A stretch of 64,000 nucleotides of DNA from an uncultured Bacilli bacterium (GTDB lineage: Bacteria > Bacillota_I > Bacilli_A > RF39 > UBA660). The position numbers were made by a program, and so were the translations under genes. How positions within the stretch are numbered: position 1 is the stretch's first letter; the number at the start of each line of letters is the position of its first letter. The stretch lies in assembly GCA_934155645.1 (NCBI GenBank), contig CAKPHC010000001.1:31015-95014 (forward strand), read 5' to 3'. Below the pieces are notes generated by a model, which saw only the letters and a program-made list of their open reading frames with translations, was not told the origin of the DNA and ran no database searches. This document shows positions 9,291 to 60,634 of this stretch, piece after piece.

Positions 9291-11513
9291 TTATTCATCA
9301 AAGAAATCATCAAAGAATTTATTATCTTCAACTTCTTCTTCAAGTGTAATTGAAGGGGCATCTTTTTTAGGTATTTCTGCTTCTTTTTCCGATACAACTT
9401 CAGTTGGTTTTACAGGTACCTCTTCAACTACTTTATCTTCTTTAAGAGGTTCTATTTTTTCAATAGGTTTTATATTTTCTGTAATAAATGTATTATTTAC
9501 TACTGGAGTTACATCTGGCTTAACTTCAACCGTTGGTTGTGGTTTAAGAATAGTTGGTTTTTTTTCATTTTCAGCCAATTTAGCACGACGCTCTTCTTCT
9601 TCAATTTCTGCAATTTTAGCATCAATCTTCTTAAGGAAATCATCCATATCAAGCTCTGGAGCATTTTTCTTGTTATCCTTAGGAATAGTATTCATACCAC
9701 CAAAATTATTAGGAGAAGTTGGCATGCTTTGGAATGGATTCATTGGAGCCATACCTGGCATCATTCCACCTTGTGGAGCGCCACCATTATCCATCATCTC
9801 TTTTATCTTTTCTTGACGTTTTTGTTTTACAAATTCCCTAACATCAAATACCGCAACCGGTTTCTTCTTCCTTTCAGGATATTCAATAGGTCCATAACTC
9901 TTGCCCCAGTCTATTTTAAAGTCAGGAGTAAAAGATGTTTTAAATGGTTGCATACGCATTCTTAAAACTATTTGATCAAATTGTTTCATACGTTGCAAAT
10001 CACTTACTGTTACAAGTGGTGTTGAAGCCGTTTTATCATCTTTTTTAGACTTAACTTCACCACATAATTTACTAATTTCCTCTAGTGCTGCTAATTCTGT
10101 AGATATCAAATAAATTAAGTTACCACAGTTACCTTTAATAGTTTCAGCATTTTCAGCACCATATACTTGTTTTAATTGTGCAAAGTTTTGAATAATCATT
10201 GTAAATCTTATTTGTCTAGAACGAGCTGCTGTAATCATTGTTGTTACATCTTTTAAAGGTGGCATGTTAGCAAACTCATCTAGTAAGAAGTTAGTTCTAC
10301 AAGGTAATTTACCACCATTTGATTGAGCAACATCTATTAATGTTTCATAACATTGTTTTACGAAGATAGTTGCAAGTGAATGGTAAGTTTTCTTTTCATC
10401 TTGAATAATTATAAATACAGCTGTTTTTTGTTTACCAATAGACTCTAATTCAAAGTCACTATATGATAACATCTCTGATAAATTCTCACGTGATGAGAAT
10501 AATTTAATCTTTTGTTTAAATACTGCAATAATACTACCCTTAGTTTCATTTGGAGCCATGATAGTACCACTGGCATTTATATAAGCAGCACTATTAGGAT
10601 CTTTCATATTAAAGTATTCTTTTACATAAGTAGAAGCGCCACATTTATCTTCACCAACAGTAGTAGTTAAGCTGATACTATTAATATTAATTTTATCTTC
10701 TGTAGTATCTTCAAACATACCTAATGCTAAACCAGAGAAATAGTCAGCAGAAGTTTTTTCCCAGAATGGGTCAGCATTACCATTATTCTCTTCATATAGA
10801 ATATTTAATGCTAAGTCATCTAGTAACTCTATTGCTTTATCTTGGTTACCACTTTTATATAATCTGTAAGGTAATGTTAATGGGTTCCATGCATTACCTC
10901 TTTGAGGATTACGGAAGTTAAGTAAAATTATGTTATATCCTTTAGCTTTTAACATACTGCCGGTTTTTTCAAACAACTCACCTTTAGGGTCAGTACAAAT
11001 AATAGATTCACCCTTTTTAGCAAGTATTTTAATTGTAGGTAAGATAGTACTAACAGTTTTACCTGAACCAGTAGCACCAATTACTAAGTTATGATATTCA
11101 CCATCATCAACCCAAAGTTCACCGTTCTTACTAATTAAAGGAATACCAGCATAATCAGCCTTCTCATCAGATGGATGTACACATTTTAGTACTTTTTTCA
11201 TTTCTTTTTCTTTAGCCCATCTACTATAACCTTTATCCTTTTTATTCATTGTGAATCCTACACCTTCTTCACGTTCAAAGAAATATGAAGATACACTTGC
11301 AAAAAGTGCCGCTAAAGCAACTATATAAAATATTATAGTTGTAAATATATAATCAGGTCCAAAAGCTGGAAATGGATTAAGTCCTGCTAGTCTTCCTTCA
11401 CTTGCTAGCATTGGTAAATTAACAACACCAAGTGCTACTACATATAAAAGGAAAACAGCAAATATTGCAAAAATTAATACATCTTGTGGTTCAGCTCTAA
11501 ATTTAAATTTCAT
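9291..11513 (-). CDS. Type IV secretion coupling protein (VirD4/TraG/PcfC-like T4CP)
   Basis: 740 aa with two N-terminal transmembrane helices and the Walker A motif VIGATGSGKTVS. The unusual C-terminal tail has a Pro/Met/Gly-rich segment, a Lys/Glu-rich segment, and ends FFDDFFDE. Confidence 0.75.
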   Translation of the reverse strand: MKFKFRAEPQDVLIFAIFAVFLLYVVALGVVNLPMLASEGRLAGLNPFPAFGPDYIFTTIIFYIVALAALFASVSSYFFEREEGVGFTMNKKDKGYSRWAKEKEMKKVLKCVHPSDEKADYAGIPLISKNGELWVDDGEYHNLVIGATGSGKTVSTILPTIKILAKKGESIICTDPKGELFEKTGSMLKAKGYNIILLNFRNPQRGNAWNPLTLPYRLYKSGNQDKAIELLDDLALNILYEENNGNADPFWEKTSADYFSGLALGMFEDTTEDKININSISLTTTVGEDKCGASTYVKEYFNMKDPNSAAYINASGTIMAPNETKGSIIAVFKQKIKLFSSRENLSEMLSYSDFELESIGKQKTAVFIIIQDEKKTYHSLATIFVKQCYETLIDVAQSNGGKLPCRTNFLLDEFANMPPLKDVTTMITAARSRQIRFTMIIQNFAQLKQVYGAENAETIKGNCGNLIYLISTELAALEEISKLCGEVKSKKDDKTASTPLVTVSDLQRMKQFDQIVLRMRMQPFKTSFTPDFKIDWGKSYGPIEYPERKKKPVAVFDVREFVKQKRQEKIKEMMDNGGAPQGGMMPGMAPMNPFQSMPTSPNNFGGMNTIPKDNKKNAPELDMDDFLKKIDAKIAEIEEEERRAKLAENEKKPTILKPQPTVEVKPDVTPVVNNTFITENIKPIEKIEPLKEDKVVEEVPVKPTEVVSEKEAEIPKKDAPSITLEEEVEDNKFFDDFFDE

Positions 11514-11531
11514 AATATTCCTTCTTTCAGT

Positions 11532-12251
11532 TTAGTCATTATCCAATTTTCTTCTCTTATTAAATAAGAATAGTACAATCATAACTACTAATATCAAGAG
11601 AATTATACCAATAGTTTCAAAAATCTTCAATACTTTTTCATCTTGTTGCTTTTGTTCCTCAGATTTTTCAGCAATCTTCTTAGTATTAATCTTCAAATAT
11701 AAATTTTTATTATCAAAATTGTTTTTTGTAACGGTCCAACTATATACGTTATTGGACACTTTATCAGCGTTATTGTCCTCTACCTTATACTTTGTTTTTA
11801 TGTTAATTGTAACTTCATATAAATTGTCAAAGTTTTCTATACACAAAAATTCTTTACTAGTAGACAAAACTATGTATCTATCATTATTGTAAACTTGAAA
11901 ATATTTATAACAACTATTTGCAATATAAGATTTAGAATAATCACTTATACTAAAAGTATTGGTATATTTAATACCTAGTCTATTATTGGAATCTATTTTC
12001 TCTTTCAAATAATACTTATACTGTGGATTAGGGTCTTCTGTATCACCATTTTGTTCATCTTTAAGTACACCTGTTTTTATATTAAGATTATCTTCTATTT
12101 GTTTCTCAATTTCATAATCATAATATAGGTTTTCCTCATACACTTGAAGTTCTTCTTTAATTTCATCACTTTTTATCTCAATATTATATTGAGCACTACA
12201 ACCAGTAAGTAAAAGAACTGAGCATATAATAAATAATATATTTTTTTTCAT
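11532..12251 (-). CDS. Lipoprotein with a C-terminal transmembrane anchor (T4SS-associated, hypothetical)
   Basis: The start was moved to MKKNILFIICSVLLLTGC, which has a lipobox. RBS AGGAGAG. The gene lies between the hydrolase and the T4CP. Confidence 0.5.
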   Translation of the reverse strand: MKKNILFIICSVLLLTGCSAQYNIEIKSDEIKEELQVYEENLYYDYEIEKQIEDNLNIKTGVLKDEQNGDTEDPNPQYKYYLKEKIDSNNRLGIKYTNTFSISDYSKSYIANSCYKYFQVYNNDRYIVLSTSKEFLCIENFDNLYEVTINIKTKYKVEDNNADKVSNNVYSWTVTKNNFDNKNLYLKINTKKIAEKSEEQKQQDEKVLKIFETIGIILLILVVMIVLFLFNKRRKLDND

Positions 12252-12262
12252 AGACTCTCCTA

Positions 12263-14410
12263 TTAAGTTATCTTTAAATAGCAAATAAAATTATATTTAA
12301 TTGTTTCCATACTGATATTTTTAAAATGTTGGCATCCATTTTCTTCACATATAATTGAACGTTTCCTTAATTTGTCAGAACCACTATAATTCCACAACTG
12401 ACTTGAAGTAGTAAAACCGGCTTTTGCAAGGCTACCAAACGAAATACCTGCTTCGGAAATATCTATTGAAATAATATTACCATTACTATCACGATATACC
12501 GCCTCTACTACAGCAACGTGTCCATATTTATGCTTATCACTATTCCAAGATATTATAGAACCCGCTCTTAACGTAGAATCGTTAGGATTATAACTATGTT
12601 CAAATTGTTGATAATCATCGGCTGTACAAAAGCCATTACCATCACCACCATTAGTCACATATTTGTACATATTTTGCAATCCCATAGTAGCAATTATTTC
12701 ATTAGTTCTTCTAACAGCATACCAAGCACATTCTCCCTCATAAGAACCCAAACCAGCAAATCCTTTTGATAAATCTGCAGTAGCAGCATAATAATACAAG
12801 TTATCAATAGTAGCTCTACTTACACGTTTTAAGTAACCGTTTTCATCTTTTACTAATCCTTCCGTAGCACCCACTGTTATAACTACTTTATCAGAATAGT
12901 ATTTTTCTATTATTTCCTCGTAAGTTAAACCGTTCTCAGCATCATACCATGCTCCTAATTGGCTCATTCCTATACAACCAGCATTTGAAGAGGTATCATT
13001 AACGTAAGATTCTATATCAAAATACGATAAATTTTTAGGAATAGAAAGTGTGTGACTACCAAGTTTATTGTGCATATCATAAGAAAAATCAGCAGTACAT
13101 GAAGAATTATTACATTTAACATTACAACTTGAACTTTTAGATGGGAATGTAGTAAATGATGCATAAAAAGGTTTATCATCAAGTGATATATATCTTCCCA
13201 TAGTATCATCAACCGCTTCTACAACTAAAGGATTGTCCTCATATCCTTCTTTATACTTTTGAATATTTTTATTAGTTAATTCGCGAGTACAATTATTAGT
13301 AACATTTAATGCTAAACTTCTTGAAACAACTGCTTGAGCTTTTAGTGCTTCTATCGGAACATCCTTGTCCCCAAGTTCAGCATATACAACTCCTTTAATA
13401 TAATCTTCTAAATCCATAGTTACGCCATCAACAGTAATACCTTTATTACAAACAGAAACAGCAGTAACAAAAGATTGCTTATCCATTACTTTATAATAAG
13501 AATATATTTCTGAAATAATATCTGCTATTTTTTTCTTATTTTCATCACTAGCTTCATCATCTTTATTTGGCATATATTCATTATAATAATTAAATATAAA
13601 GCCTTCATCAATTAAATTCCAATAGTAAACACTACCACTATTATCATCATCAATTCTTCCCTCTTCTATTGATAATGAATAACTCTCTTCAACATCATCC
13701 AAAACACAATTGTTATTTGTTTCATTCAGAAAATCATCATTACTAGCAATTTTTCTTATTGTTGATGAGTCATCAGAACAAGTTTTAGTAGTCATTATTT
13801 GATATTTAGCTAATTTAGAAACTTGATTTTTCATATATGCTATATTTTTGGAGTTTGATGAGTCATTTTCTATATCTTCCATATCGTTGTATGCTATTAA
13901 AGTTGCAAGAATTAAGTTTCCGTCTAATTCAGCTGTACGACGATATGAACTAACTACCTCAGTAATCTCATTTCTTAAGTCTTCATAGATATCAGTCGCA
14001 TCACCAATACCACCAAAAGCATCTTTACTAAAGATTAAAATAAAGAAAAGAAGAATTATTAAAAAAGGACCTGCTATTAAAGGAATATTCTTAATTAAAG
14101 TTTTTCTAATTATTACTTTTGTTCCTTCTACTGCACCCTGACTAATAGTGGGTGCACTACTTGCAGCATTTAACGCTTCTTCACCAGTACTACTGTTTAA
14201 TAACTGTTCAGTAGCAGCTTCTGGAACACCATAAGCTTGTGCTGCTTTCTTGATTCCTGTCTTAATTAATTCTTTCTTTATTCCATTTTTAGGATTAGCA
14301 TTTTGCTTAGCACGTGGGTCAAAAGAAGGTGATGATTTTACAGCATTATTCAAACCACCATTATATCCATTATTAACATTAATTTTTGGTTTTTTTGAAT
14401 CCATAGCCAT
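12263..14410 (-). CDS. T4SS-associated peptidoglycan hydrolase with a SpoIID/LytB-like domain and a C-terminal CHAP domain
   Basis: Has an N-terminal transmembrane segment. The PIEALKAQAVVSRSLAL motif matches the SpoIID signature. The C-terminal GECAWYAVRR...YGHVAVVE is a CHAP Cys/His pair. Confidence 0.7.
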   Translation of the reverse strand: MAMDSKKPKINVNNGYNGGLNNAVKSSPSFDPRAKQNANPKNGIKKELIKTGIKKAAQAYGVPEAATEQLLNSSTGEEALNAASSAPTISQGAVEGTKVIIRKTLIKNIPLIAGPFLIILLFFILIFSKDAFGGIGDATDIYEDLRNEITEVVSSYRRTAELDGNLILATLIAYNDMEDIENDSSNSKNIAYMKNQVSKLAKYQIMTTKTCSDDSSTIRKIASNDDFLNETNNNCVLDDVEESYSLSIEEGRIDDDNSGSVYYWNLIDEGFIFNYYNEYMPNKDDEASDENKKKIADIISEIYSYYKVMDKQSFVTAVSVCNKGITVDGVTMDLEDYIKGVVYAELGDKDVPIEALKAQAVVSRSLALNVTNNCTRELTNKNIQKYKEGYEDNPLVVEAVDDTMGRYISLDDKPFYASFTTFPSKSSSCNVKCNNSSCTADFSYDMHNKLGSHTLSIPKNLSYFDIESYVNDTSSNAGCIGMSQLGAWYDAENGLTYEEIIEKYYSDKVVITVGATEGLVKDENGYLKRVSRATIDNLYYYAATADLSKGFAGLGSYEGECAWYAVRRTNEIIATMGLQNMYKYVTNGGDGNGFCTADDYQQFEHSYNPNDSTLRAGSIISWNSDKHKYGHVAVVEAVYRDSNGNIISIDISEAGISFGSLAKAGFTTSSQLWNYSGSDKLRKRSIICEENGCQHFKNISMETIKYNFICYLKIT

Positions 14411-22477: not shown

Positions 22478-22546
22478 TCTAAGAACAACTCCTTTCTATT
22501 ATCTACATTAATAATTATAACCAATTCTAAACTTTATATCAATAGT

Positions 22547-23335
22547 TTATATTCCAAAAAGCATTATAGTTGACAACAATAATATAAGCATAGTGCCACC
22601 GCCAGTAACAACTAGCATAATCATTGTACGTCTTTCCATATTACTTAATCTATTTTTATATTTTACTTCTCTTGCTTTATTTTGTAAGTTAGAAACAGAC
22701 CTAGAAAACATCAATAATTGTTGATATTTATTCTCTTGTGCACCAAGACTTAATCGATATAGTAACCTCATCATACGCATAGAATCCCTTACTGGATACT
22801 TAATAGCAAAATCCATATAAGGTTGAATAGATGAATCACCAGCGTCAATCTTTGCTATCATTTCCTTCAATCCTGGTTTAAATATATCAGGAGCATCTTC
22901 AACTGATCTAGAAATTGCTACCGGAACCGTATAATTCTGGCAAAGAATTTCTAAGCTTTTTAAATAATATGGAAGCATTTGATCAATCTCATGCATATAT
23001 CTTTTATAATACTTTTTTAAAGACATGTATTGTGATTTAAATATTAAAAATGCCACTAGAATTACAGCAATAAAATTTATAAAACTAGCATTAGTAATAA
23101 ATAATATCATTGCAAACATTATTCCAAAGAAAGTATTTCTAAGACGAGTATTAAATAATTGATTAGGATCAACTTTATCACCATATTTGGCACTTACATA
23201 AAAGTCATAATCCTTTTCTTTTAAACCTTTTAAGTAAATATCATTTTCAGCTATGAAAGTTCTAGTATCAACTCTTTTGGTATAAACTAACATAATCATA
23301 ATTAGAATACCTATTATAAATATTTCTAAAAACAT
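22547..23335 (-). CDS. TadC-like (T2SS-F family) inner-membrane pilus assembly protein
   Basis: 262 aa polytopic membrane protein. It overlaps the TadB-like gene (TAATG) and is downstream of CpaF. Confidence 0.5.
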   Translation of the reverse strand: MFLEIFIIGILIMIMLVYTKRVDTRTFIAENDIYLKGLKEKDYDFYVSAKYGDKVDPNQLFNTRLRNTFFGIMFAMILFITNASFINFIAVILVAFLIFKSQYMSLKKYYKRYMHEIDQMLPYYLKSLEILCQNYTVPVAISRSVEDAPDIFKPGLKEMIAKIDAGDSSIQPYMDFAIKYPVRDSMRMMRLLYRLSLGAQENKYQQLLMFSRSVSNLQNKAREVKYKNRLSNMERRTMIMLVVTGGGTMLILLLSTIMLFGI

Positions 23336-24234
23336 TACTCAGCACCTACATTCTCGTTATAATATTTTTCTCCAGATAGAAGAAAATAACTGTTAAATAA
23401 AACTATTATATGTAAGCTTATTGTAACTATTGGGTCAGTTAATAACTGTTGATATACTTCAACCCCCAACAAGTACTGAACTAACATTACTAGTAAATAT
23501 AACATAATACCATACTGAACGAATTGTTTATGGAATCCTTGTCTATCTACTCTATCACGATATACACCTTCAACTAACATATCTATATCTTGTAACATAT
23601 TTTCAAGTACTTCTGTAGTATCACGTGAACCCTCTTTAGTAATTTGCAAAAATAACTGATGCATATTTCTAGTCATATAGAAATCATATTTACTATTCAT
23701 ATATTCTATTGATTTATCTACATCACCATTTTGATAAGCCATATCTATCATAACTTTTACATCAGATAAAACTGGGTCTTGTAATACACCAGATGAATAC
23801 ACACCTTCTAAAGCTTTAACAAAGCTTTGAGTAGTTTGAAACTCCATTATTGTATTAGTAACATATACTTGTATTTGTTCAAATATAAATTCACTATATA
23901 TTCTCTTACAACGTAAATATGTTAAGTATGGAACCATTGCAACAACTAATATCGTATATATAATAGATATTATAGGATTATAGAAATATAAATAAGAAAT
24001 TAAGAATGCTGCACCTGCAAAAGTTGCTATTTGAATCATATATTGCTTAGGTGTATATTCTTGACCTAATTCTTTTACTTTTTCACGAACCACTTTAAAA
24101 GAATAAGGTGCATACTTATTATAAATATTACCAGTCTGTGTAACAACAAATGTATATAGAGATTCACCCTTTTTATTACGATACAAAATAATAAATATAA
24201 ATATTACTAATGCAATTATTAACTCTATAGCCAT
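23335..24234 (-). CDS. TadB-like (T2SS-F family) inner-membrane pilus assembly protein
   Basis: 299 aa membrane protein, paired with the TadC-like gene. RBS AGAGGTGGT. Confidence 0.5.
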   Translation of the reverse strand: MAIELIIALVIFIFIILYRNKKGESLYTFVVTQTGNIYNKYAPYSFKVVREKVKELGQEYTPKQYMIQIATFAGAAFLISYLYFYNPIISIIYTILVVAMVPYLTYLRCKRIYSEFIFEQIQVYVTNTIMEFQTTQSFVKALEGVYSSGVLQDPVLSDVKVMIDMAYQNGDVDKSIEYMNSKYDFYMTRNMHQLFLQITKEGSRDTTEVLENMLQDIDMLVEGVYRDRVDRQGFHKQFVQYGIMLYLLVMLVQYLLGVEVYQQLLTDPIVTISLHIIVLFNSYFLLSGEKYYNENVGAE

Positions 24235-24255
24235 TTATTACCACCTCTTTCTCTT

Positions 24256-25533
24256 TTAAATTAATTCTTCAACAACCGAATTATTTGTAGGTACTTTATC
24301 ACCTAAATTAACAAATAAATCATCAACATTTACCCCTTGTCCTTCAAGATAATCTCTTAAATATTTAGAAGGTAATTTATATGTTTCACTACCACTTACA
24401 GTTTTACGATAAATAGTATTGTGACCAGCATTATTATTATCATCAACAAAGAACTCTGTTACTTCACAAATTTCTCTTCTAAATCGTTTTTCAACTGGAT
24501 CAAATCTACCTCTTACATTAACACCTAATTGAACATAACGATGAATTGTTTTTAAGAATTGATCAACATCAATATTAGATTCCAACAAACTATACATACG
24601 ATGCGGAATACTCTCTGCCTTATCAGAGTGAATTGTTGATAAGATATTATGTCCTGATGATATAGAGTTACGTACAGCAGTAACTGCTTCAGCGCTACGA
24701 ACCTCTGATAATAAAATCCATTTAGGATTTTGTCTCATACAAGTTACCAAAACATCAGAATATGATGCAATATTATTAGTTTTCATCGCAACTATATCAC
24801 GATGTGGAAAAATTCTATCTAAATGAAGTTCTAGTGTATCCTCTATTGTTATAATTTTTTCATTATCAGCTGTATGAGCAGCTAAATACTTAACCAACTC
24901 AGTTTTACCAGAACCAGTCTCACCACTTACAATAATATTACAATGACCTTTAACCGCTCTAATTAAAAACTCATGTATATTTAAAGTTACATATCTATCT
25001 GCTAATAACTTATCCTTTTCAAGTCTAATCTTAGCAGGTGTTTTACGAAATACTGCTGCTATACCATTTCTTGCTATAGAATCATGTACAAAATTCATAC
25101 GAAGTTCAGCAGATTCACTATCCAAAAATGGATGTGCCATATTAAAAGTTTTACCCATTACATTAGAACATTGGAAAGCTATTTTTTCTATTAACGAATC
25201 GTTTATTTCTGTTTCATCAGAACGATAAACTCCTTTATCTAAACTCTTTAACCAAACTTGTCCACCATTACTATAAGAAATATCGGTAATATTATCATCT
25301 TGTAAATACTTTTTTAAAGGTCCAAAATCTATATTAGAAAATAAATTATCATTTCTTAAATAATTATCATTTATTTCTCTTGGCTGATGAGCTTGTTGAA
25401 CAGTTGATACACTAGGTTGTCTTAATTCTTCTAAAGGAGTTGGCCCAACATCTTGTTTAGGAACCAAAGAGGGAGTAGAGACGTTATCCTGAGTTTTATA
25501 TGCTATACCTTGTAAATTCATTCCCTCATTCAT
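24256..25533 (-). CDS. CpaF/TadA pilus assembly ATPase (VirB11/GspE superfamily)
   Basis: Walker A NIIVSGETGSGKTELVKYLAAH and a typical T2SS-E fold. RBS AAGGAG. Confidence 0.8.
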   Translation of the reverse strand: MNEGMNLQGIAYKTQDNVSTPSLVPKQDVGPTPLEELRQPSVSTVQQAHQPREINDNYLRNDNLFSNIDFGPLKKYLQDDNITDISYSNGGQVWLKSLDKGVYRSDETEINDSLIEKIAFQCSNVMGKTFNMAHPFLDSESAELRMNFVHDSIARNGIAAVFRKTPAKIRLEKDKLLADRYVTLNIHEFLIRAVKGHCNIIVSGETGSGKTELVKYLAAHTADNEKIITIEDTLELHLDRIFPHRDIVAMKTNNIASYSDVLVTCMRQNPKWILLSEVRSAEAVTAVRNSISSGHNILSTIHSDKAESIPHRMYSLLESNIDVDQFLKTIHRYVQLGVNVRGRFDPVEKRFRREICEVTEFFVDDNNNAGHNTIYRKTVSGSETYKLPSKYLRDYLEGQGVNVDDLFVNLGDKVPTNNSVVEELI

Positions 25534-25534
25534 C

Positions 25535-26440
25535 TTACTCTACTCCTTCTTTTTTATTATTGTTTGTTGTATTACTATCTGTTTTATCATCAGTATTATC
25601 CTTAGTTGGATCATTATTTTCTATAATTTCATCCTCAGGAATATAAATACTCTTCTCTTCAATAAAATCTTTTAAATATTCATTACTTACTTTAGTAACA
25701 ACACCTTCAGTAGTATTTCCATCAAATCCAGTAGTATTAGGTACAGGAATAATATCAATTTTATACTGAGTACTTAAGTTACCAATAGATGCTGCTTTAC
25801 GTAATAACAAATGTATATCTTCTTTAACAGAGAAAATAATTGTAGCAGGTATTCTTGCTTCTTCACTGTTCTCAAAAACATTTAAACCATTAGATGTTTT
25901 AACCGCTCTTACTAAAACGTTAGATACCAACTTTCCTACCATAACTTTGGTATTACCATCAGCATCAGTAGTAATTGTTTGCATATAGATATCTATATAA
26001 TTACCAGGTAAGATAGAATTACTATAAGAAGTAGTTATATTAACTCCTAAATAGTACAATGTCTCATCAATAGGCATATCATAAAGTGCTGCATCAGGTA
26101 ATTCTTCTTTCTTTACTACAGTACCTTTATAGAACATACTTCCTTTAGGAATAACTGTATTAGCACTAGAATAGTAATTAATTAATTGGTTAACATTAGT
26201 AATTACATTTTCATCTATTGCTGCTCTTGCTATTTCTTTATACCCAATCATATCCTTAGTAATCTCAGTTCTAGGTTGTATCATTTTAATAGCATATGGA
26301 ACTTTAACAGGATTAACAGCATCTTTAACACGCCAGTTATACCCTACAAAAATAACAGCAATAATTAGTAATCCACAAAGTATTGTTACTGTATTTTTGT
26401 TTTTTAGAAACATTTTAAACTTTAAACCTAAATTATTCAT
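25535..26440 (-). CDS. CpaB/RcpC-like Flp pilus assembly protein
   Basis: An N-terminal transmembrane segment is followed by SAF-like and RcpC-like regions (ATIIFSVKEDIHLLLRKAAS). Confidence 0.55.
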   Translation of the reverse strand: MNNLGLKFKMFLKNKNTVTILCGLLIIAVIFVGYNWRVKDAVNPVKVPYAIKMIQPRTEITKDMIGYKEIARAAIDENVITNVNQLINYYSSANTVIPKGSMFYKGTVVKKEELPDAALYDMPIDETLYYLGVNITTSYSNSILPGNYIDIYMQTITTDADGNTKVMVGKLVSNVLVRAVKTSNGLNVFENSEEARIPATIIFSVKEDIHLLLRKAASIGNLSTQYKIDIIPVPNTTGFDGNTTEGVVTKVSNEYLKDFIEEKSIYIPEDEIIENNDPTKDNTDDKTDSNTTNNNKKEGVE

Positions 26441-26455
26441 TTCTCCATCTCCTTA

Positions 26456-26962
26456 TTATTCTTTAAATTTATCTTCTAATATAGCACTAAGAGTATTTAC
26501 TATCTCTGCTGAATCAGTTTCATAGTTGATAGAATCATTTTTCTTAAGTACTTTAGATAACCAATTATATTTTTCTCTTGCTGTAATAGTTACTGTTACT
26601 TTAGGCGGACATTCATCAATGTCATCAAAACTTATTTTATAATCACGATTGTTAGTAGCAGACTCTGCAAATCTTCTTACAAAACTTTCAACAAATTTTT
26701 CTTTAACTATTCTAACTGTACCAGGAATACCAGAAATGCAATGCATAGAGTCAGGGTCAGTTATTTCTGTTACTCCATCATAACCTACTCCCATACGATA
26801 CGCTTGATAATCTATAGCGTCAATCATTGAAGCTTCAGTTACTTCTTTTAAAATGTAATACATATCTTCATTACTTACTGTAATATTTCCAAATAAGTTA
26901 ATTAACACTATTCCTAAAAGTCCTAATACAAGGAATAAATATCCCCATACTGATGACTGCAT
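26456..26962 (-). CDS. Small membrane-anchored protein, possible Tad pseudopilin or assembly factor
   Basis: 168 aa with an N-terminal transmembrane segment. RBS AAGGGAG. Confidence 0.3.
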   Translation of the reverse strand: MQSSVWGYLFLVLGLLGIVLINLFGNITVSNEDMYYILKEVTEASMIDAIDYQAYRMGVGYDGVTEITDPDSMHCISGIPGTVRIVKEKFVESFVRRFAESATNNRDYKISFDDIDECPPKVTVTITAREKYNWLSKVLKKNDSINYETDSAEIVNTLSAILEDKFKE

Positions 26963-26981
26963 TATATCTACTCCCTTTCTA

Positions 26982-29960
26982 TTATTGAGGAATTGTCTCT
27001 ACAACAGTAAAGTATGAACGAAATCCTCCTACACTTGTATCATTAGAATGTATAAACATACTCTCATATTTTCCATTTAAATTATATTCGTTAACTCGTA
27101 CATAGTCAATATAAGCATTCTTATTTTTTATAGAATTGTACTCTTTTGTATTCTTTTTTATCTCATTTATTCTATCTTGATTTAACTCTACTACATACTC
27201 CGGCTGTGCTGTACTATCTAAGATTGGATTTAATAAATCATCGGTTATGTATATCTCTTTTCCAAACCAGTTATATCCAGGTCTTCTATTATTTGGAAAC
27301 GGATCTCTTAATGATATTGGTCTATATATATAATCACATGTTATTCCTAAGCAATTGTTATCTTTCTTTACTGAAAGACAATCATTTACACAACTTGCTA
27401 CACTGTTATATCCATCCTTCAAATAGTTAGATTCAATTTTACAATAATTTATTACTGCTTTTTCATCACTAGACGAAAAGTTTGGATTGTGTTTACAACT
27501 ATTATTTCCACTTGAACATGAATCAAAGCATTCTCTTTCACTTCCGTAATTTGCTGTATCACTTATCCAGTTTGTTCTACAGTAGTCTCTTATCTTGTCA
27601 TACTCTGCTGCTTTATATAATCTTGTACATGTATTTTCTTCATCACTCGGATTACCTCTTTGATATTTACATGTTGCTACAATATTATTGTCTATTGCTA
27701 TCGCTCCAAATAATCTTATGTTTTCTGATATTGGTGAATATATTGTGTTTCCATTTAGTATATATCCTCTAGTAGATAAGCCATATGTTATTCCTACATT
27801 GTTCTTGTTTTCTATTAATAATTCATACTTATCTTCTCTTTCAACTATTGAACATGATACCGGAGACTCTACTACATATCTACATGTATTGGTTGCATTT
27901 AAATTACTGCTTCCTTTATTTACTTTTACTTCTGTTTTATATGTATCTTTCTTTATCTTTAAATCTGTATAATATTCATGATATGGTCCATCATTTTCTG
28001 TATCACATTTTCCATTAGCGTTAACATCATACATCTTACCTGTTCCTGCACTTATACATACTGCTGGTAATTTATATGCTGTTTTATTCTTAGAAGTTGT
28101 TTTTATTAATCCATATATTGATTGATATGTTACTTGCCCATTACTGTATAATGGCACTCTATTACTTCCTCCTGCTGTTACTACCACATCATTATTTAGT
28201 AAATTTATTGTCTTTGATGGTACCAACTGTTTAGTTGTTTTTCTATTGCTTGCATTAGCATCATTGCTATTTGTTATATCTATCGTTATTGTTGCATTAC
28301 TTGAATCATATTTATATTTATTATCCAAGTCCTTAACCCATGTTGAATTTGATTCTATACTTTGAAAATTCTTTAAAATTTCTTTTAACTTAGTTCTTTC
28401 TGCTTCAGTATAACTACTTGCATAGTCAAACTTCCACTTTGCTAATTCAAATGTCATCTGACATGTCTTTTCTCCACTTAGTACTGGAGTGTATGTAAAT
28501 CCTGTTCCTGGTGTTAATGTTGTTGGTAAGCTATTACCATAGCTTATTGTACTTGATTCACTACAATTTGAACGATAGTAATTACTTGTATTCGCTTTTG
28601 TACATGTGCTTAAACTAGAGCTTGTATCAGCATCACACTCTGTACTTACACCAGAACTTGATTGATTGGCATTACAACTACTAAATCCAGGATCACTATA
28701 TCCACAAGTTGCAATGCACGTTTTCTTCTCACCTGAATTATCGCTTGCTGCTTGACAATAGTCTTCAGCGCAACTTAACAAGTTATCTCCACTTTTTCCT
28801 GAACATGTTTGCTTACATGTCTGCACTGTTCTTTCTAAACTACATGTTGCTACTTCATTTCCATTCGCATTATAAACCGCTCCATATATTGCTGCGTCTT
28901 TATATGTTCCACGATATATATTATTTTTTACATTATGTTTTAACAAATTTCTATTATTTTTTATATCATAATAAACGGTTTCAGCACCTGCGCCTTGAAC
29001 ATTTAATGTATATGTTCTTTTATCAGTTGCTTCTGTTATTGTACAAGAAACTGGTAATGTATAATTACCTAACCAAAACACATTTATTCCATGTCCTTCT
29101 TTACTTGTTACTTTTTTAACATTATTTATTCTGTTTCGAGTTTCGCCTTCATTCCATACGCTTGTATTCAATCCTTTATCTTTAGTTATCAAATATACTA
29201 AATTACCTATAAATTTATATTTATCATCACCAGTTTGACGTTTTGCTACAATTGAATTAGGAACAAATAGATATAACCACTGAGTTACTGACCCTGCTAA
29301 TTTTCCATCAGTTCCTAACCAACTAGCAATTTCATACGCAGTCCCAAAATAATAATTGCTATTAGCTTTAAACAACAATGCTGGCTCAATTGTAATATAT
29401 AAATTACCAACATCACTTTCCTTTAAATTTTCTACTCCATTACCCTTAAACTCACTTTTTATAGCTCCTAGCACTAAAGTTTTATTACCACTATTAAGCT
29501 CAAACGCTTCTTTAACCTTAGCCTCAATTGCGTTCCAGTTACCATCTTCTTTTTCAGTAAATACTTTAGGAAAAATTATTGAAGTTTTCTTAGAAACAAC
29601 TCCTCTTTTATCAAATTTACCAGGGTTACCTCCAAATTGTTGATACGCTACTTTCCCTTTTTGTGCCGAAGCATAATTAGTTACATAAGTTAAACAATCG
29701 CTATTTGTACCATTAGCGCAATAATTATTAGATCCATAATAAGTAACATTATTACCATCATATTTATACAAAGATAATCTTACAGCAAAAGACTCTACAT
29801 CACTAGGATAACTCCAATCACATCCACGTGCTGAAGAAGCACAACCACCAGGAGTAGTTGTACTATTACCTCCTCCAGTATTTCCAGCAAAAACATTACT
29901 ATTACCAAATAAAATTATTATCAAAATAAATATCATAAAAAAATTAATTATTTTTTTCAT
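26982..29960 (-). CDS. Giant (about 990 aa) secreted cysteine-rich protein, candidate adhesin or tip protein of the pilus/T4SS cluster
   Basis: Has a signal peptide and about 45 Cys, with many CxnC pairs. I recognise no domain. It is the second gene of the minus-strand operon. Confidence 0.5.
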   Translation of the reverse strand: MKKIINFFMIFILIIILFGNSNVFAGNTGGGNSTTTPGGCASSARGCDWSYPSDVESFAVRLSLYKYDGNNVTYYGSNNYCANGTNSDCLTYVTNYASAQKGKVAYQQFGGNPGKFDKRGVVSKKTSIIFPKVFTEKEDGNWNAIEAKVKEAFELNSGNKTLVLGAIKSEFKGNGVENLKESDVGNLYITIEPALLFKANSNYYFGTAYEIASWLGTDGKLAGSVTQWLYLFVPNSIVAKRQTGDDKYKFIGNLVYLITKDKGLNTSVWNEGETRNRINNVKKVTSKEGHGINVFWLGNYTLPVSCTITEATDKRTYTLNVQGAGAETVYYDIKNNRNLLKHNVKNNIYRGTYKDAAIYGAVYNANGNEVATCSLERTVQTCKQTCSGKSGDNLLSCAEDYCQAASDNSGEKKTCIATCGYSDPGFSSCNANQSSSGVSTECDADTSSSLSTCTKANTSNYYRSNCSESSTISYGNSLPTTLTPGTGFTYTPVLSGEKTCQMTFELAKWKFDYASSYTEAERTKLKEILKNFQSIESNSTWVKDLDNKYKYDSSNATITIDITNSNDANASNRKTTKQLVPSKTINLLNNDVVVTAGGSNRVPLYSNGQVTYQSIYGLIKTTSKNKTAYKLPAVCISAGTGKMYDVNANGKCDTENDGPYHEYYTDLKIKKDTYKTEVKVNKGSSNLNATNTCRYVVESPVSCSIVEREDKYELLIENKNNVGITYGLSTRGYILNGNTIYSPISENIRLFGAIAIDNNIVATCKYQRGNPSDEENTCTRLYKAAEYDKIRDYCRTNWISDTANYGSERECFDSCSSGNNSCKHNPNFSSSDEKAVINYCKIESNYLKDGYNSVASCVNDCLSVKKDNNCLGITCDYIYRPISLRDPFPNNRRPGYNWFGKEIYITDDLLNPILDSTAQPEYVVELNQDRINEIKKNTKEYNSIKNKNAYIDYVRVNEYNLNGKYESMFIHSNDTSVGGFRSYFTVVETIPQ

Positions 29961-30001
29961 GTCTTTGTTTCCTTTCATTATTTTAAATTTCTTTCCATTA
30001 T

Positions 30002-37365: not shown

Positions 37366-37458
37366 TTATATCACCTAATTGCAAAAAAACAAACGCCCTT
37401 TCGATAATATTTACCTACTAACACGCTTGTTCTCAGTTACTTCTATTTAGCATTACTG

Positions 37459-37659
37459 CTAGGAAAATACTTGTTTCTTCAAGAATCGTTTTACCATAAC
37501 TTTCGTTATAAACTCATCCACAATCTGAAGGAATTCCAGAGGACGCACGCCATTCTCATTGTCCACGTTACCGTTGTCATTGACGTTCCACACGTTAGAG
37601 TCAGAGTTGAAGGGCCTATTGTAGCATTTCCCTATATATATAAATTTTATATATACCAT
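37459..37659 (-). pseudogene. Orphan C-terminal DUF6273-like fragment, a partial duplicate of the 3' end of the upstream gene
   Basis: Encodes ...NSDSNVWNVNDNGNVDNENGVRPLEF, paralogous to ...SNASVWNVGPADRLDIVGVVDDDGVRPVINL of 37723..39372. It lacks the N-terminal two-thirds. It is GC-rich like the parent segment. Confidence 0.5.
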
Positions 37660-37722
37660 ATTTTTAGAAGGCCAGTTGCAAAGGGTTTTGCAACTGGCTT
37701 TATTAGATTTTAGATAAAGGTT

Positions 37723-39372
37723 TTAGTTAACTTTCATAACATACGGATTATTAAGAGTTCCGTTTCCTCCATCAATGATTTCTGCAGTAGATTTCAGATT
37801 GATGACCGGGCGCACGCCATCGTCATCGACGACGCCGACGATGTCAAGTCTATCAGCAGGACCGACATTCCACACGCTAGCGTTAGAGCCAGAGCGTAAG
37901 GGCGACATTGTCCAATAATGAGAATCAGTATACAAGTAATATTCAGTATTTTCGTTATAAGCTACCCCACCTGCATATGCTACTTCATCTGCTGTTATTA
38001 AGCCAATTGGATAAGTTAGTGCTTTATTTCCTTTTGTTGAAGTTGCTGTTGTATATAAATCATTACTTTGTGGACATTTAAATTGTGGTGTTTTATTTAA
38101 ATCAAGTCTATAATAAGCACCGTAAATAGTAATACCATCACCAATGTCAAAACCACTTCTATCTCCACAAAATCCTATATCTACTAAATATGATGAATAA
38201 GTACTTAAATTTGCACTATACCATGTATCTATTGTTGTTTTTATTGCACTTGAATTGGTATTTTTATGAGTTTCAGCATATGTCGATGCACCTGTTGTTC
38301 CATACATATACCCTACATATGTAGCATCATTAGAGTTAGTATTAAACGCACTATTACCTATTGAATCTTGTTTGATTAATCTTATACTTCCATCTTCATT
38401 TATTCTTACTATTCGCCACAAAATTTCTTTTTTTCCCCATGTAGCGTATTCATTTGTATATGTTGTGCCTTCAAATTGAGAACACTTTTCACCATTTACA
38501 TCTCCTGAAATAATTGCACCTACACCATTTCTAGCAAGACAAACCTTTGATTCCTTACATTGACTCTCATTTGTCGTTGGATATTCACCTGCACCATTAA
38601 CATAGACAACCTCATTTCCATTATAAGTACATACATTTACTTTTCCAAATGATACATAGTTATTCTCCACTGCTCCTCTAAAGTAATATGTTGTTTTATT
38701 ATCTTCGGTATTTGTACTTGTATAATATAGTCCTTTTCCATTTGTATCACTACTTATTTGTGAAAAATCTATATTTGTATCAGGCTGTGCTGTATTATCT
38801 TTTAATATTGCTGCTGATAATCTTGTTGTTTTTATTATAGGGTTTTCTGGTGTCACGGTTTCGCTCATATCTTGTACATAATTAATATCAATGGTTAAAG
38901 TATTATCTGTTAAGGCTGGTTGAGTTGTTACATTAGAATCATAACTAATTGTTACGTTAAATGTAGAGGTTTGAGATTTTGCTAATTTGTCTCCTTTTTT
39001 TATTCCGGTTATTTCAAATTTAATAGCATCACTTCCAGTTTCACTTGCTGTTATATCATTTATTATTGCATCTAATGTTCCTTGATTTGCTACTGTTATT
39101 TTGTAGATTATCTTGTCACCTGGACTTTTTAAATCTACATTAAATGTTGCATTTGTTCCTTCTGCTGTTGGTACTTTGGTAATAGTTACTCCACTTGTTT
39201 TAGATACTTCTTCTATTTTAGTAAATAGTACTTTCCAAGTTGATGTAATATTTGCTGTACCATTAATAGTTAAGTTTGTTGCAAACGCTGCATACCCTAT
39301 TGCCATTACACATATTAAACAGCACATCGTTATCATAATTATTTTCTTACTCTTCATATACTTCTCTTCCAT
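37723..39372 (-). CDS. Surface protein with a TasA/camelysin (SipW-cognate) like N-terminal domain and a DUF6273-like C-terminus
   Basis: Leader KKIIMITMCCLICVMAIGYAAFATNLTINGTA. The ATFNVDLKSPGDKIIYKITVANQGTLDA motif resembles TasA/CalY. C-terminal YWTMSP...VWNV...GVRPVINL. RBS GGAGAGAG. Confidence 0.55.
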   Translation of the reverse strand: MEEKYMKSKKIIMITMCCLICVMAIGYAAFATNLTINGTANITSTWKVLFTKIEEVSKTSGVTITKVPTAEGTNATFNVDLKSPGDKIIYKITVANQGTLDAIINDITASETGSDAIKFEITGIKKGDKLAKSQTSTFNVTISYDSNVTTQPALTDNTLTIDINYVQDMSETVTPENPIIKTTRLSAAILKDNTAQPDTNIDFSQISSDTNGKGLYYTSTNTEDNKTTYYFRGAVENNYVSFGKVNVCTYNGNEVVYVNGAGEYPTTNESQCKESKVCLARNGVGAIISGDVNGEKCSQFEGTTYTNEYATWGKKEILWRIVRINEDGSIRLIKQDSIGNSAFNTNSNDATYVGYMYGTTGASTYAETHKNTNSSAIKTTIDTWYSANLSTYSSYLVDIGFCGDRSGFDIGDGITIYGAYYRLDLNKTPQFKCPQSNDLYTTATSTKGNKALTYPIGLITADEVAYAGGVAYNENTEYYLYTDSHYWTMSPLRSGSNASVWNVGPADRLDIVGVVDDDGVRPVINLKSTAEIIDGGNGTLNNPYVMKVN

Positions 39373-39404
39373 TTCTCTCTCCGTATTTTATTTTATCTAT
39401 ACTC

Positions 39405-39436
39405 ATTATACCCCCCCCCCCCTAGGAGTTTTGCAA
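39405..39436 (-). promoter_or_regulatory. Promoter with a G12 homopolymer in the -35/-10 spacer (TTGCAA, 20 nt, TATAAT), a candidate phase-variation switch
   Basis: The plus strand has 12 consecutive C at 39411-39422. On the minus strand this reads TTGCAAAACTCCTAG(G12)TATAAT, about 30 nt upstream of the RBS and ATG. Confidence 0.6.
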
Positions 39437-39498
39437 GTGAAATGTTATCATTTTTTAGACCGTTAATGTAAAGGTATAAATTTCCTAAATTTTAGCAA

Positions 39499-39523
39499 TT
39501 AAAAAAGCAACTTTCGTTGCCTT
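39499..39523 (-). terminator. Intrinsic terminator after the LemA gene
   Basis: GGCAAC-GAAA-GTTGC followed by TTTTTT on the minus strand. Confidence 0.5.
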
Positions 39524-39530
39524 ATGTTTA

Positions 39531-40070
39531 CTATAACTTTACTTTAACATTTTGTTTTTCTTTTTCTTCTACTTTAAATAAGTCTTGTTTTTCAAAGCCA
39601 AATATCTTAGCTACAATATTAGATGGTACAGATTCAACTAAATTATTAAATCTAGTTACACAACTATTATAATCAAGTCTTGCATTATTAATACTATTTT
39701 CAACTTCAATTAAACTGTTTTGTAAACTTAAGAACTGTTCATTAGCTTTTAATTCAGGATAAGCTTCCGCTAGTGCCATAACAGGGCCAAATTTCTTATT
39801 AATCTTTTCTGCCTCTTCTACACTGAAACCATTATCATTATAACTATTTCTTAGTTTGACTAATTCTTCCAAAGTACTCTTTTCATGCTTTGCATATCCT
39901 TTTACACACTCGATTATATTAGGTAGTAAATCAAATCTTCTTTTTAACAAAACATCTATTGCTGACGCTGACTCTTTTACTGAATTATTAACTCTTATAA
40001 AACTATTGTAACCAGCAATCATTACAACCATTAAAATTATTACAATCACTAAACATATATTAATTATCAT
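39531..40070 (-). CDS. LemA family protein
   Basis: An N-terminal transmembrane segment followed by GYNSFIRVNNSVKESASAIDVLLKRRFDLLPN. Confidence 0.7.
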   Translation of the reverse strand: MIINICLVIVIILMVVMIAGYNSFIRVNNSVKESASAIDVLLKRRFDLLPNIIECVKGYAKHEKSTLEELVKLRNSYNDNGFSVEEAEKINKKFGPVMALAEAYPELKANEQFLSLQNSLIEVENSINNARLDYNSCVTRFNNLVESVPSNIVAKIFGFEKQDLFKVEEKEKQNVKVKL

Positions 40071-59298: not shown

Positions 59299-60399
59299 TT
59301 ACTTAATATCACTATAATTCATTTCAATTACTGGTCTAACTCCCACTGATGGAGTTCTAGCTCCTGCAAGGTCAAGATAACCATCACTTCTGATATTCAA
59401 ATTTGTTGTACCAGATGTAAATTCAATCCAATATGATGTTGAATATACCCAGCTAGGTGCGTTTAGGCAATAATTATTCGAAGCGTCATTAACACATCCA
59501 AGGTTCTCCAATTCTGATCCGGTTATATATCTTACATTAGTTACGTTTGCACCCAGTCTTCGCAAATATACTCTATACGTATTTAAGTGACTTTGAACAT
59601 CACCATAACCTACTCCACCATATGCAGTTACACCTTCTTTGTATCCTACTACATTTGAGTCTTGCTTACCAGTTCCTTTATATGTAGTATTAACATCTCC
59701 AGTATTTACATCCAAATTATATTTAGCAAGCGCAGCAAAAGAAGTAGTACCATTTACAGAAATTATATAGAAAGCTTCATCGCCTATTTTAAATTCTGAA
59801 CCCACCGTATATTTATCACCAACAAATTGCATAGTTATATCATTACTTGGGTTTATTGTTATATCCTCATCAGTAATAGTTTGTCCTACATCTTGAACAA
59901 AGTTTATAGACAATGTTAATTTATTATCTACATAAACTGGTTGACTAGTTATGCTAGAATCATAGTCAATTGTCACTGCAAAAAAAGTTTCATTATTACT
60001 TTTTAACTTAGTACCTTTTTTAATATTTGCTACACTAAATTTAATAGCATCACTTCCAGTTTCACCTGCAGTAATGTCATTTACTATTGCATCCAGTGTG
60101 CCTTTATTCTTTATATAAATAAAATAAATTATCTCATCACCAGGACTTTCTAAGTCAACATTAAATGTAACTGTTGTACCACTCGCTGTTGGTGCTGAAA
60201 TTTCAGTAACATTACCTGTACTGCTAAACTTTTGAATTTTAGTAAATTCTATATCCCAAGTTGACTCAATACTTGCTGTACCATTAACTGTTAATTGTGT
60301 TGCAAAAGCTGCATACGCTACTGCCATCACACATATTAAACAACACATAGTTGTTATAATTATTTTCTTTGTCTTCATATATTTTTCTTTCATCCTCAT
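59299..60399 (-). CDS. Surface protein with a TasA/camelysin-like N-domain and a DUF6273-like C-terminus (paralog of 37723..39372)
   Basis: MRMKEKYMKTKKIIITTMCCLICVMAVAYAAFATQLTVNGTA. VTFNVDLESPGDEIIYFIYIKNKGTLDA. C-terminal GVRPVIEM. The start was moved downstream of the promoter. RBS GGAGAG. Confidence 0.55.
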   Translation of the reverse strand: MRMKEKYMKTKKIIITTMCCLICVMAVAYAAFATQLTVNGTASIESTWDIEFTKIQKFSSTGNVTEISAPTASGTTVTFNVDLESPGDEIIYFIYIKNKGTLDAIVNDITAGETGSDAIKFSVANIKKGTKLKSNNETFFAVTIDYDSSITSQPVYVDNKLTLSINFVQDVGQTITDEDITINPSNDITMQFVGDKYTVGSEFKIGDEAFYIISVNGTTSFAALAKYNLDVNTGDVNTTYKGTGKQDSNVVGYKEGVTAYGGVGYGDVQSHLNTYRVYLRRLGANVTNVRYITGSELENLGCVNDASNNYCLNAPSWVYSTSYWIEFTSGTTNLNIRSDGYLDLAGARTPSVGVRPVIEMNYSDIK

Positions 60400-60427: not shown

Positions 60428-60458
60428 ATTATACCCCCCCCCCCTAGGGTTTTTGCAA
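60428..60458 (-). promoter_or_regulatory. Promoter with a G11 homopolymer in the -35/-10 spacer (TTGCAA, 19 nt, TATAAT)
   Basis: Eleven C lie at 60434-60444 on the plus strand. The whole region of about 70 nt is conserved with 39405-39470. Confidence 0.6.
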
Positions 60459-60634
60459 GAAGGAAATGTTATCATTTTTTGATTTTTTTATAAAAATAGA
60501 CAATATTTACCACTTCTATACACTAGTATCTACTATCTACTAAATTATAACCCTAAATTGGGTAGAATTTTGTTGGTAAATTTTACCAATTAAAGCAATA
60601 AAAAAAGACAACCTTTTTAATTTGTTGCCTTTCA

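Follow-up and report, generated by a model that had tools for sequence, protein, structure and literature searches.

A poly-G tract in the -35/-10 promoter spacer as a candidate phase-variation switch for a family of DUF6273-like secreted protein genes in uncultured gut Bacilli

The DNA analysed here, hereafter the window, is a 64,000-nt stretch of an uncultured Bacilli bacterium (RF39, UBA660; assembly GCA_934155645.1, contig CAKPHC010000001.1, positions 31,015–95,014, forward strand), which carries on its minus strand a run of 12 G residues between a -35-like hexamer and a perfect -10 hexamer, upstream of a gene predicted to encode a secreted or surface protein. This run is probably a functional slippage switch, acting as a transcriptional phase-variation device or a rheostat for each paralogue of the family. 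In the mechanism proposed, the G12 would be the variable element of a sigma-A-type promoter cassette consisting of TTGnnA, 8 nt, Gn, TATAAT, a short leader, a ribosome binding site (RBS) and a signal peptide, and this cassette would head members of a multigene family of secreted or surface DUF6273/C-lectin-like proteins. Slipped-strand mispairing in replication would add or remove a single G and shift the -35/-10 spacing between about 17 and 20 nt; each paralogue would have its promoter strength switched or graded on its own and in a heritable way, and the cells of a clone would come to differ in which family members they express. G9-G10 would represent the ON state, with the G12 (20 nt) of the gene mentioned above and the G11 (19 nt) of a second copy in the window being OFF or weak.

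Across the promoter region of the first gene, designated copy 1, the minus strand reads cacTTGCAAaactcctaGGGGGGGGGGGGTATAATgagtatagataaaataaaatacGGAGAGAGaaATGgaagagaagtatATGaag, in which the following features were located.

39431–39436 (minus): -35-like hexamer TTGCAA; homologous cassettes have TTGCAA, TTGCCA, TTGTCA or TTGCTA here
39423–39430 (minus): spacer bases outside the tract, AACTCCTA; their number is 8 in every cassette
39411–39422 (minus): G12 homopolymer (C12 on the plus strand), proposed to be slippage-prone and to set the -35/-10 spacing; homologous tracts are G10 to G12
39405–39410 (minus): -10 hexamer TATAAT, invariant in all cassettes
39373–39404 (minus): short leader (..TATAGATAAAATAAAATAC) including the RBS GGAGAGAG at 39375–39382; conserved between cassettes and predicted to be unstructured (fold z-score -0.06)
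37723–39372 (minus): copy 1 gene, 549 amino acids; N-terminal signal/anchor helix, immunoglobulin (Ig)-like beta-sandwich and large C-terminal domain, putatively DUF6273 (C-lectin-like)
39504–39523 (minus): intrinsic terminator of the upstream LemA gene (39531–40070), shielding the copy 1 promoter from read-through

The two hexamers and the 20-nt spacer (AACTCCTA + G12), which an earlier note made from the sequence alone had described, were verified at these coordinates. TATAAT is followed by a 22-nt stretch, shorter than the 25 nt or so given in that note, then by the RBS GGAGAGAG (39382–39375) and an ATG at 39372 (MEEKY...); a second ATG lies at 39357 (MKSKK...). The description of the C12 as highly non-random also held: at the GC content of the window, 27.5% and not about 25%, C/G runs of at least 12 are expected 2e-5 (independent bases) to 6e-5 (first-order Markov) times per 64 kb, and no C/G run in the window exceeded 5 other than the C12 at 39411–39422 and a C11 at 60434–60444. 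Homopolymer slippage needs about 8 or more residues, a length reached by G12 and G11 in the window and by G10-12 in relatives. Since the LemA gene ends at the terminator 39523–39504, the copy 1 cassette forms a separate transcription unit. A scan for minus-strand promoters with a standard 16-18-nt spacer found none at either window locus in its present state, and TTGCAA and TATAAT are presumed to be the hexamers actually used.

The C11 belongs to a second cassette, at 60428–60458; neither this cassette nor the multigene family appears in the earlier note. It reads cttcTTGCAAaaaccctaG11TATAATgattatagataaaataaagtttGGAGAG..ATG and heads a paralogue, copy 2, whose N-terminal 175 amino acids are 62% identical to those of copy 1 and whose C-terminal part differs.

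60453–60458 (minus): -35-like hexamer TTGCAA
60434–60444 (minus): G11 homopolymer; spacer AAACCCTA + G11 = 19 nt
60428–60433 (minus): -10 hexamer TATAAT
59299–60393 (minus): copy 2 paralogue gene, with the likely start MKEKYMKTKK at 60393
39439–39456 (minus): 18-nt box AAAAAATGATAACATTTC of copy 1, an optional part of the cassette; found also in copy 2 (60463–60480) and in a relative, locus L006 (9917–9934), and in those three only

The composite pattern TTGCAAAANNCCTAGGGGGGGG had two matches in the window versus none in 100 shuffles. In the alignment of the two copies, similarity begins abruptly at the box AAAAAATGATAACATTTC just 5′ of the -35 and spans the -35, spacer, tract, -10, leader, RBS and signal peptide, with none farther upstream; the unit is therefore a promoter-plus-signal-peptide cassette common to the paralogues. 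Within the box lies an extended -10-like TGATAACAT; the box might function as an UP-like element or be bound by a regulator.

Homologous cassettes were read at loci of relatives, all of them gut-metagenome contigs (L-numbers), giving 16 pure-tract cassettes with both window copies included.

Window copy 1: -35 TTGCAA, G12, spacer 20 nt
Window copy 2: -35 TTGCAA, G11, spacer 19 nt
L002: -35 TTGCAA, G10, spacer 18 nt
L003: -35 TTGCAA, G12, spacer 20 nt
L005, L007 and L014: -35 TTGCCA; G10, G11 and G10; spacers 18, 19 and 18 nt
L006: -35 TTGTCA, G11, spacer 19 nt
L011: -35 TTGCCA, G11, spacer 19 nt
L016: -35 TTGCTA, G11, spacer 19 nt
L017, L018, L019 and L020, tandem downstream gene: -35 TTGCCA; G11, G10, G10 and G10; spacers 19, 18, 18 and 18 nt
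L026 and L027: -35 TTGCTA; G11 and G10; spacers 19 and 18 nt

All 16 pure tracts (seven G10, seven G11 and two G12) sit exactly between the -35-like and -10 hexamers with G on the coding strand. The constants of the cassette are TTGnnA, the invariant TATAAT and a non-G spacer of 8 nt ending in TA; this spacer ends in CTA in every pure-tract cassette, the exception being an interrupted cassette at P0110 (see below). No further G/C run of 7 or more was found in about 370 kb comprising the window and the clade loci. When metagenomes were scanned with the flanks fixed and the tract left free, the three true family matches all had a pure G run, whereas none of the six chance matches had one. Viral contigs scanned for the cassette gave no match, and a scan of genome contigs requiring the AAAAAATGATAACATTTC box plus TTGCAA, which was too strict, returned one chance match, inside a reverse-transcriptase gene (L001). 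L002 and L006 are syntenic loci of different species whose flanks share about 81% identity; each has kept a pure tract (G10 and G11), while the 8-nt stretch adjoining it varies at several positions. That a pure tract is kept while its neighbouring bases vary argues for selection on purity, i.e. on mutability. Family members lacking the G tract are P0069 and its upstream neighbour (L021-L025; in L021, 5921–6001 and 3850–4029); at the homologous position P0069 has TTCAAT-17 nt-TATAAT, which looks like a constitutive version of the cassette promoter. Two other readings of these elements, TTGCA as a sigma-54 site and a CCTAGG palindrome as a MerR-type site, were dropped by eye, the partner elements being absent or not conserved across cassettes.

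Variation in tract length was observed between strains at two orthologous loci of relatives, where the same locus, encoding an identical protein, was compared between different samples.

L017 versus L019: 11,598 bp aligned, 99.90% identity, 11 mismatches, one indel, in the tract (G11 vs G10)
L017 versus L020: 7,981 bp aligned, 99.80% identity, 15 mismatches, one indel, in the tract
L026 versus L027: 7,447 bp aligned, 99.95% identity, 3 mismatches, one indel, in the tract

In all three near-identical pairs the sole indel is thus ±1 G in the promoter tract. The earlier note had proposed length variation through slippage and had named a tract monomorphic across deep reads and strains, together with equal promoter activity at every length, as grounds for abandoning the idea; G10 and G11 were found side by side in near-identical strains at these loci, a pattern consistent with such slippage. 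The P0110 promoter (L017, 9986–9996) provides a comparison, having an interrupted tract, GGGGGAGGGGG (G5AG5; total 11, 19-nt spacer), that is identical in L017-L020, the same four samples in which the tandem downstream gene has a pure tract of either G10 or G11. An invariant GGGGGAGGGGG beside a variable pure tract is as expected if slippage requires an uninterrupted run, and the P0110 cassette looks like a naturally locked version of the switch. A contig that breaks inside the tract, L004, is a slight hint at mixed lengths within one population.

The spacing preference of the host was assessed from TTGnnA-Nx-TATAAT pairs on both strands of 224 kb of the clade, with the G-tract cassettes excluded. 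The number of pairs peaked at x = 17, with 19 occurrences versus 1-9 at the other spacings from 12 to 24; the host sigma-A therefore appears to have the usual 17-nt preference, in agreement with the optimum assumed in the earlier note. By this preference both window genes (G12 and G11) are predicted to be weak or OFF, and the 20-nt spacer of copy 1 is plausibly an OFF or weak state. Spacer length would control transcription: G9 would give the best spacing, G10 (18 nt) one that still works, and G11-G12 (19-20 nt) poor ones.

Several observations weigh against a slippage switch of this kind. G9, the 17-nt state, occurs in none of the 16 consensus tracts, all spacers being 18-20 nt, and the locked G5AG5 promoter, with a spacer of 19 nt, still heads a gene that is well conserved. 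The optimum for function may thus differ from 17, or the promoters may need some activator; a G·C tract may have an A-like geometry with a smaller rise per base pair, which could place the optimum at 10-11 G; or it may be that in the majority of cells most paralogues are just OFF. Moreover, the lengths are short-read metagenome consensus values, least reliable at long G runs, and coverage of L027 is about 3.5x; the more diverged pair L005 and L007 (99.1%) also has indels in T7-8 and A6 runs. Length variation is known from the orthologous loci of relatives and not from the two loci of the window itself: seven same-species contigs (98% nucleotide identity) from several metagenomes, found via a 99%-identical PyrG, all end short of the copy 1 promoter, at the template-repeat relic described below, at the stop codon, or inside the copy 1 gene after about 1 kb, and look-ups of the exact copy 1 protein with both start codons returned no record. 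The same absence of the canonical 17-nt state, with lengths confined to a band of 10-12, would fit a static promoter element, i.e. the site of a family-specific regulator or a stiff, A-form-like spacer setting an 18-20-nt geometry, the length differences then being neutral drift or consensus error. It would also fit the G5AG5 tract, which keeps the total length of 11 and heads a conserved gene present on 17 contigs, and the optional conserved box 5′ of the -35, which hints at extra regulation. A static element is nevertheless unlikely: a binding site needs no uninterrupted homopolymer, yet purity outlasts the divergence of paralogues and species as nearby spacer bases vary; ±1 G is the sole indel in three near-identical pairs from independent assemblies; and the tract that does not vary is the interrupted one.

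Shuffling of the genes provides another possible explanation, in which the 5′ cassette, tract included, is mainly a homology block or hotspot for exchanging coding cassettes by recombination or gene conversion, and the G run is incidental as far as transcription is concerned. Three genomic contexts (after LemA in the window, after an acyltransferase in L002 and after RecO in L016) were found to hold proteins 91-93% identical to copy 1, whereas those of the syntenic loci L002 and L006 are only about 65% alike, and within the species the family gene is 92.6% identical versus 98.4% for the flanks; these values suggest that coding cassettes are exchanged between expression loci. Recombination, however, leaves unexplained the purity of the G run, its exact position between the hexamers and length as the sole variable, and it is compatible with a switch, to which shuffling may be an added layer; as a replacement for the switch it is improbable. 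Still less probable is a role at the RNA level, with the run lying in a 5′ untranslated region transcribed from an upstream promoter, or serving as a site of reiterative transcription or as a G-quadruplex. The run is on the coding strand in every case and a weak extended -10-like TGATAACAT lies upstream in three cassettes, but this element is missing from most cassettes, a terminator T-run directly abuts the -35 at several loci, leader/promoter sequences fold no better than shuffled ones (z = -0.06, -0.53 and +1.40), and Rfam has no match there, its matches in the window being three tRNAs only. A sequencing or assembly artefact, which the earlier note had itself raised for the C-run, is effectively refuted. 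Poly-G artefacts do occur in two-colour Illumina data, the L004 contig begins inside the tract, and the tract of L028, a 1-kb low-coverage contig, is noisy (GGAGGGGGGGT); against this, the tract is internal, it has identical conserved borders in the window and in over 15 independent assemblies, which differ in project and assembler, and it is found at this one promoter position only. A switch operated by slippage within the tract stays the preferred reading; wherever sequence data could test the interpretation of the earlier note, the outcome agreed with it.

Breaks in metagenome contigs recur at or within the family gene, the template-repeat relic or the G tract (start of L004; ends of L029-L033, window equivalents about 37415–38418), which indicates that these loci are under-represented in short-read assemblies.

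Of 8000 candidates scored against the copy 1 protein, at least 4611 were related to it at E<=1e-5; almost all of these come from assemblies of gut metagenomes, Hadza ones among them, and the family is multi-copy, with at least 4-5 members on single contigs. The match of the copy 1 protein to Pfam DUF6273 (PF19789) was sub-threshold and NCBIfam gave nothing significant. An AlphaFold2 model based on a 63-sequence alignment (mean predicted local distance difference test score, pLDDT, 82.7) comprised an N-terminal hydrophobic helix (the signal peptide, probably cleaved at A-F-A), an Ig-like beta-sandwich formed by residues 43–162 and a large C-terminal domain. A Foldseek search against PDB gave weak Ig-like matches only. 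The name TasA-like used in the earlier note (TasA/camelysin, Peptidase_M73) found no support in Pfam, NCBIfam or the fold search, while it is plausible that the product is a surface protein in the sense of a predicted secreted, ligand-binding fold.

In L006, the family gene with the G11 promoter is followed by bAvd (12075–12419) and an RVT_1 reverse transcriptase (RT; 12403–13938), forming a diversity-generating retroelement (DGR) region at 10001–13938. A variable repeat (VR) of 97 nt at the C-terminus of the gene (11521–11617) pairs with a template repeat (TR) located 285 nt downstream (11806–11902), and 17 of 17 mismatches fall at TR adenines. A DGR target is recognized by a VR and TR differing at adenines only with RT/Avd nearby, a combination present in L006 and absent at window copy 1, where a relic is observed.

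37512–37640 (minus): relic DGR TR downstream of copy 1; flanks nearly matching the L006 TR, with internal deletions of 6 and 15 nt

The window was found to contain neither RT nor Avd; TR-like remnants occur also in L002, L003, L004 and L011. L006 thus has, at the sequence level, a G11 promoter and an intact-looking DGR on the same gene. Tentatively, one family of C-lectin/DUF6273 ligand binders might be subject to two or three tiers of variation, namely poly-G promoter slippage, DGR rewriting of the binding tip in strains keeping RT and Avd (each gene with its own TR copy), and shuffling of coding cassettes via the 5′ block, although we regard such a layered system as less likely to be real than not. 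As a corollary, the ON spacing may be non-canonical (18-19 nt) through the geometry of the G·C tract.

Sporulation genes were present (sigG-like and spoVE, and in relatives spoIIP, yabP and yqfD), which together with the low GC content point to a spore-forming Firmicute. The nearest PyrG relatives that bear a name, about 80% identical, are labelled 'MAG: Bacilli bacterium'. In two same-species contigs, L029 (11702–12942) and L033 (2798–4038), an insertion sequence element with HTH_28 and rve transposase genes lies beside pyrG, equivalent to about 35140 in the window, which is without it. Upstream of the family locus in L017 (145–5889) are genes for large N_methyl (prepilin-type) and Flg_new repeat proteins, and the window region at about 22500–30000, whose same-species counterpart in L029 has T2SSE and DUF5411, contains a gene cluster including a 998-amino-acid open reading frame; type IV pilus-like surface machinery nearby is suggested.

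Phase variation driven by simple sequence repeats is textbook knowledge in Neisseria, Haemophilus, Campylobacter, Helicobacter, Treponema and mycoplasmas; in work on gut commensals, to our knowledge, almost all attention has gone to invertible promoters and, lately, to epigenetic switches. In literature searches, no homopolymer promoter switch was found to have been reported from gut Firmicutes or Bacilli, and no poly-G promoter from a DGR target gene. New here are the gut commensal-type Bacilli host, the size of the family, the G tract in a 27% GC genome and the link to DGR-type lectin-fold proteins. If confirmed, such switches would be a second origin of heterogeneity within clones of the microbiome, one that is easy to overlook. 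They would be recognizable in metagenomes by a simple signature, an uninterrupted run of at least 10 G lying between TTGnnA and TATAAT at a genomic GC content of less than 30%, and would serve as a warning that short-read assemblies systematically break or mis-size such loci.

Among known systems, the tp0126 gene of Treponema pallidum, encoding an OmpW homologue, has a poly-G between the -35 and -10 of a sigma-70-type promoter with an optimum spacing of 17 nt, and the length of this tract varies within and between isolates and sets the transcription level, as established experimentally (PMC7864442). The likeness extends to the kind of gene, that for a surface or secreted protein, and to several family members (tprE/G/J/F/I/L) each having its own poly-G tract. 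T. pallidum, however, is a spirochaete of about 53% GC, in contrast to the 27% GC Gram-positive-type gut commensal here; its tracts work at lengths of about 7-11 G, the tpr genes being ON at 8 or fewer; and the proteins are unrelated, the promoter-through-signal-peptide cassette being conserved here across a much larger family. DUF6273 has been described as a domain targeted by DGRs (PMC10743442), and the DGR variable proteins with a C-lectin/DUF6273 fold, such as the phage tentaclins and TvpA of T. denticola, resemble the present family in the VR/TR, Avd and RT of L006 and differ from window copy 1, which has the degraded TR only and neither RT nor Avd in the window.

The porA gene of N. meningitidis, to which the earlier note had pointed as a precedent, bears out the comparison: its -35/-10 spacer is a poly-G tract and the mechanism is established experimentally (PMC7864442). 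Slippage of G/C homopolymers in Neisseria promoters gives high, intermediate or no expression of surface proteins (PMC7864442; PMC6389960). Unlike the family described here, porA and opc are single genes of a proteobacterial pathogen, with no paralogous family sharing a common cassette, and the poly-C tract of opc overlaps the -35 instead of filling the spacer. Every member of the multigene vlp lipoprotein family of Mycoplasma hyorhinis has a highly conserved 5′ block of promoter and signal peptide ahead of a divergent mature region, and poly-A in the -35/-10 spacer turns the genes on and off independently of one another, which makes surface variation combinatorial; the Mollicutes lie within the class Bacilli in the GTDB taxonomy. 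The vlp system differs in its poly-A tract, in which 17 is ON, in encoding lipoproteins with tandem-repeat size variation and in having no DGR link; it is the closest likeness to the present genes in family organisation.
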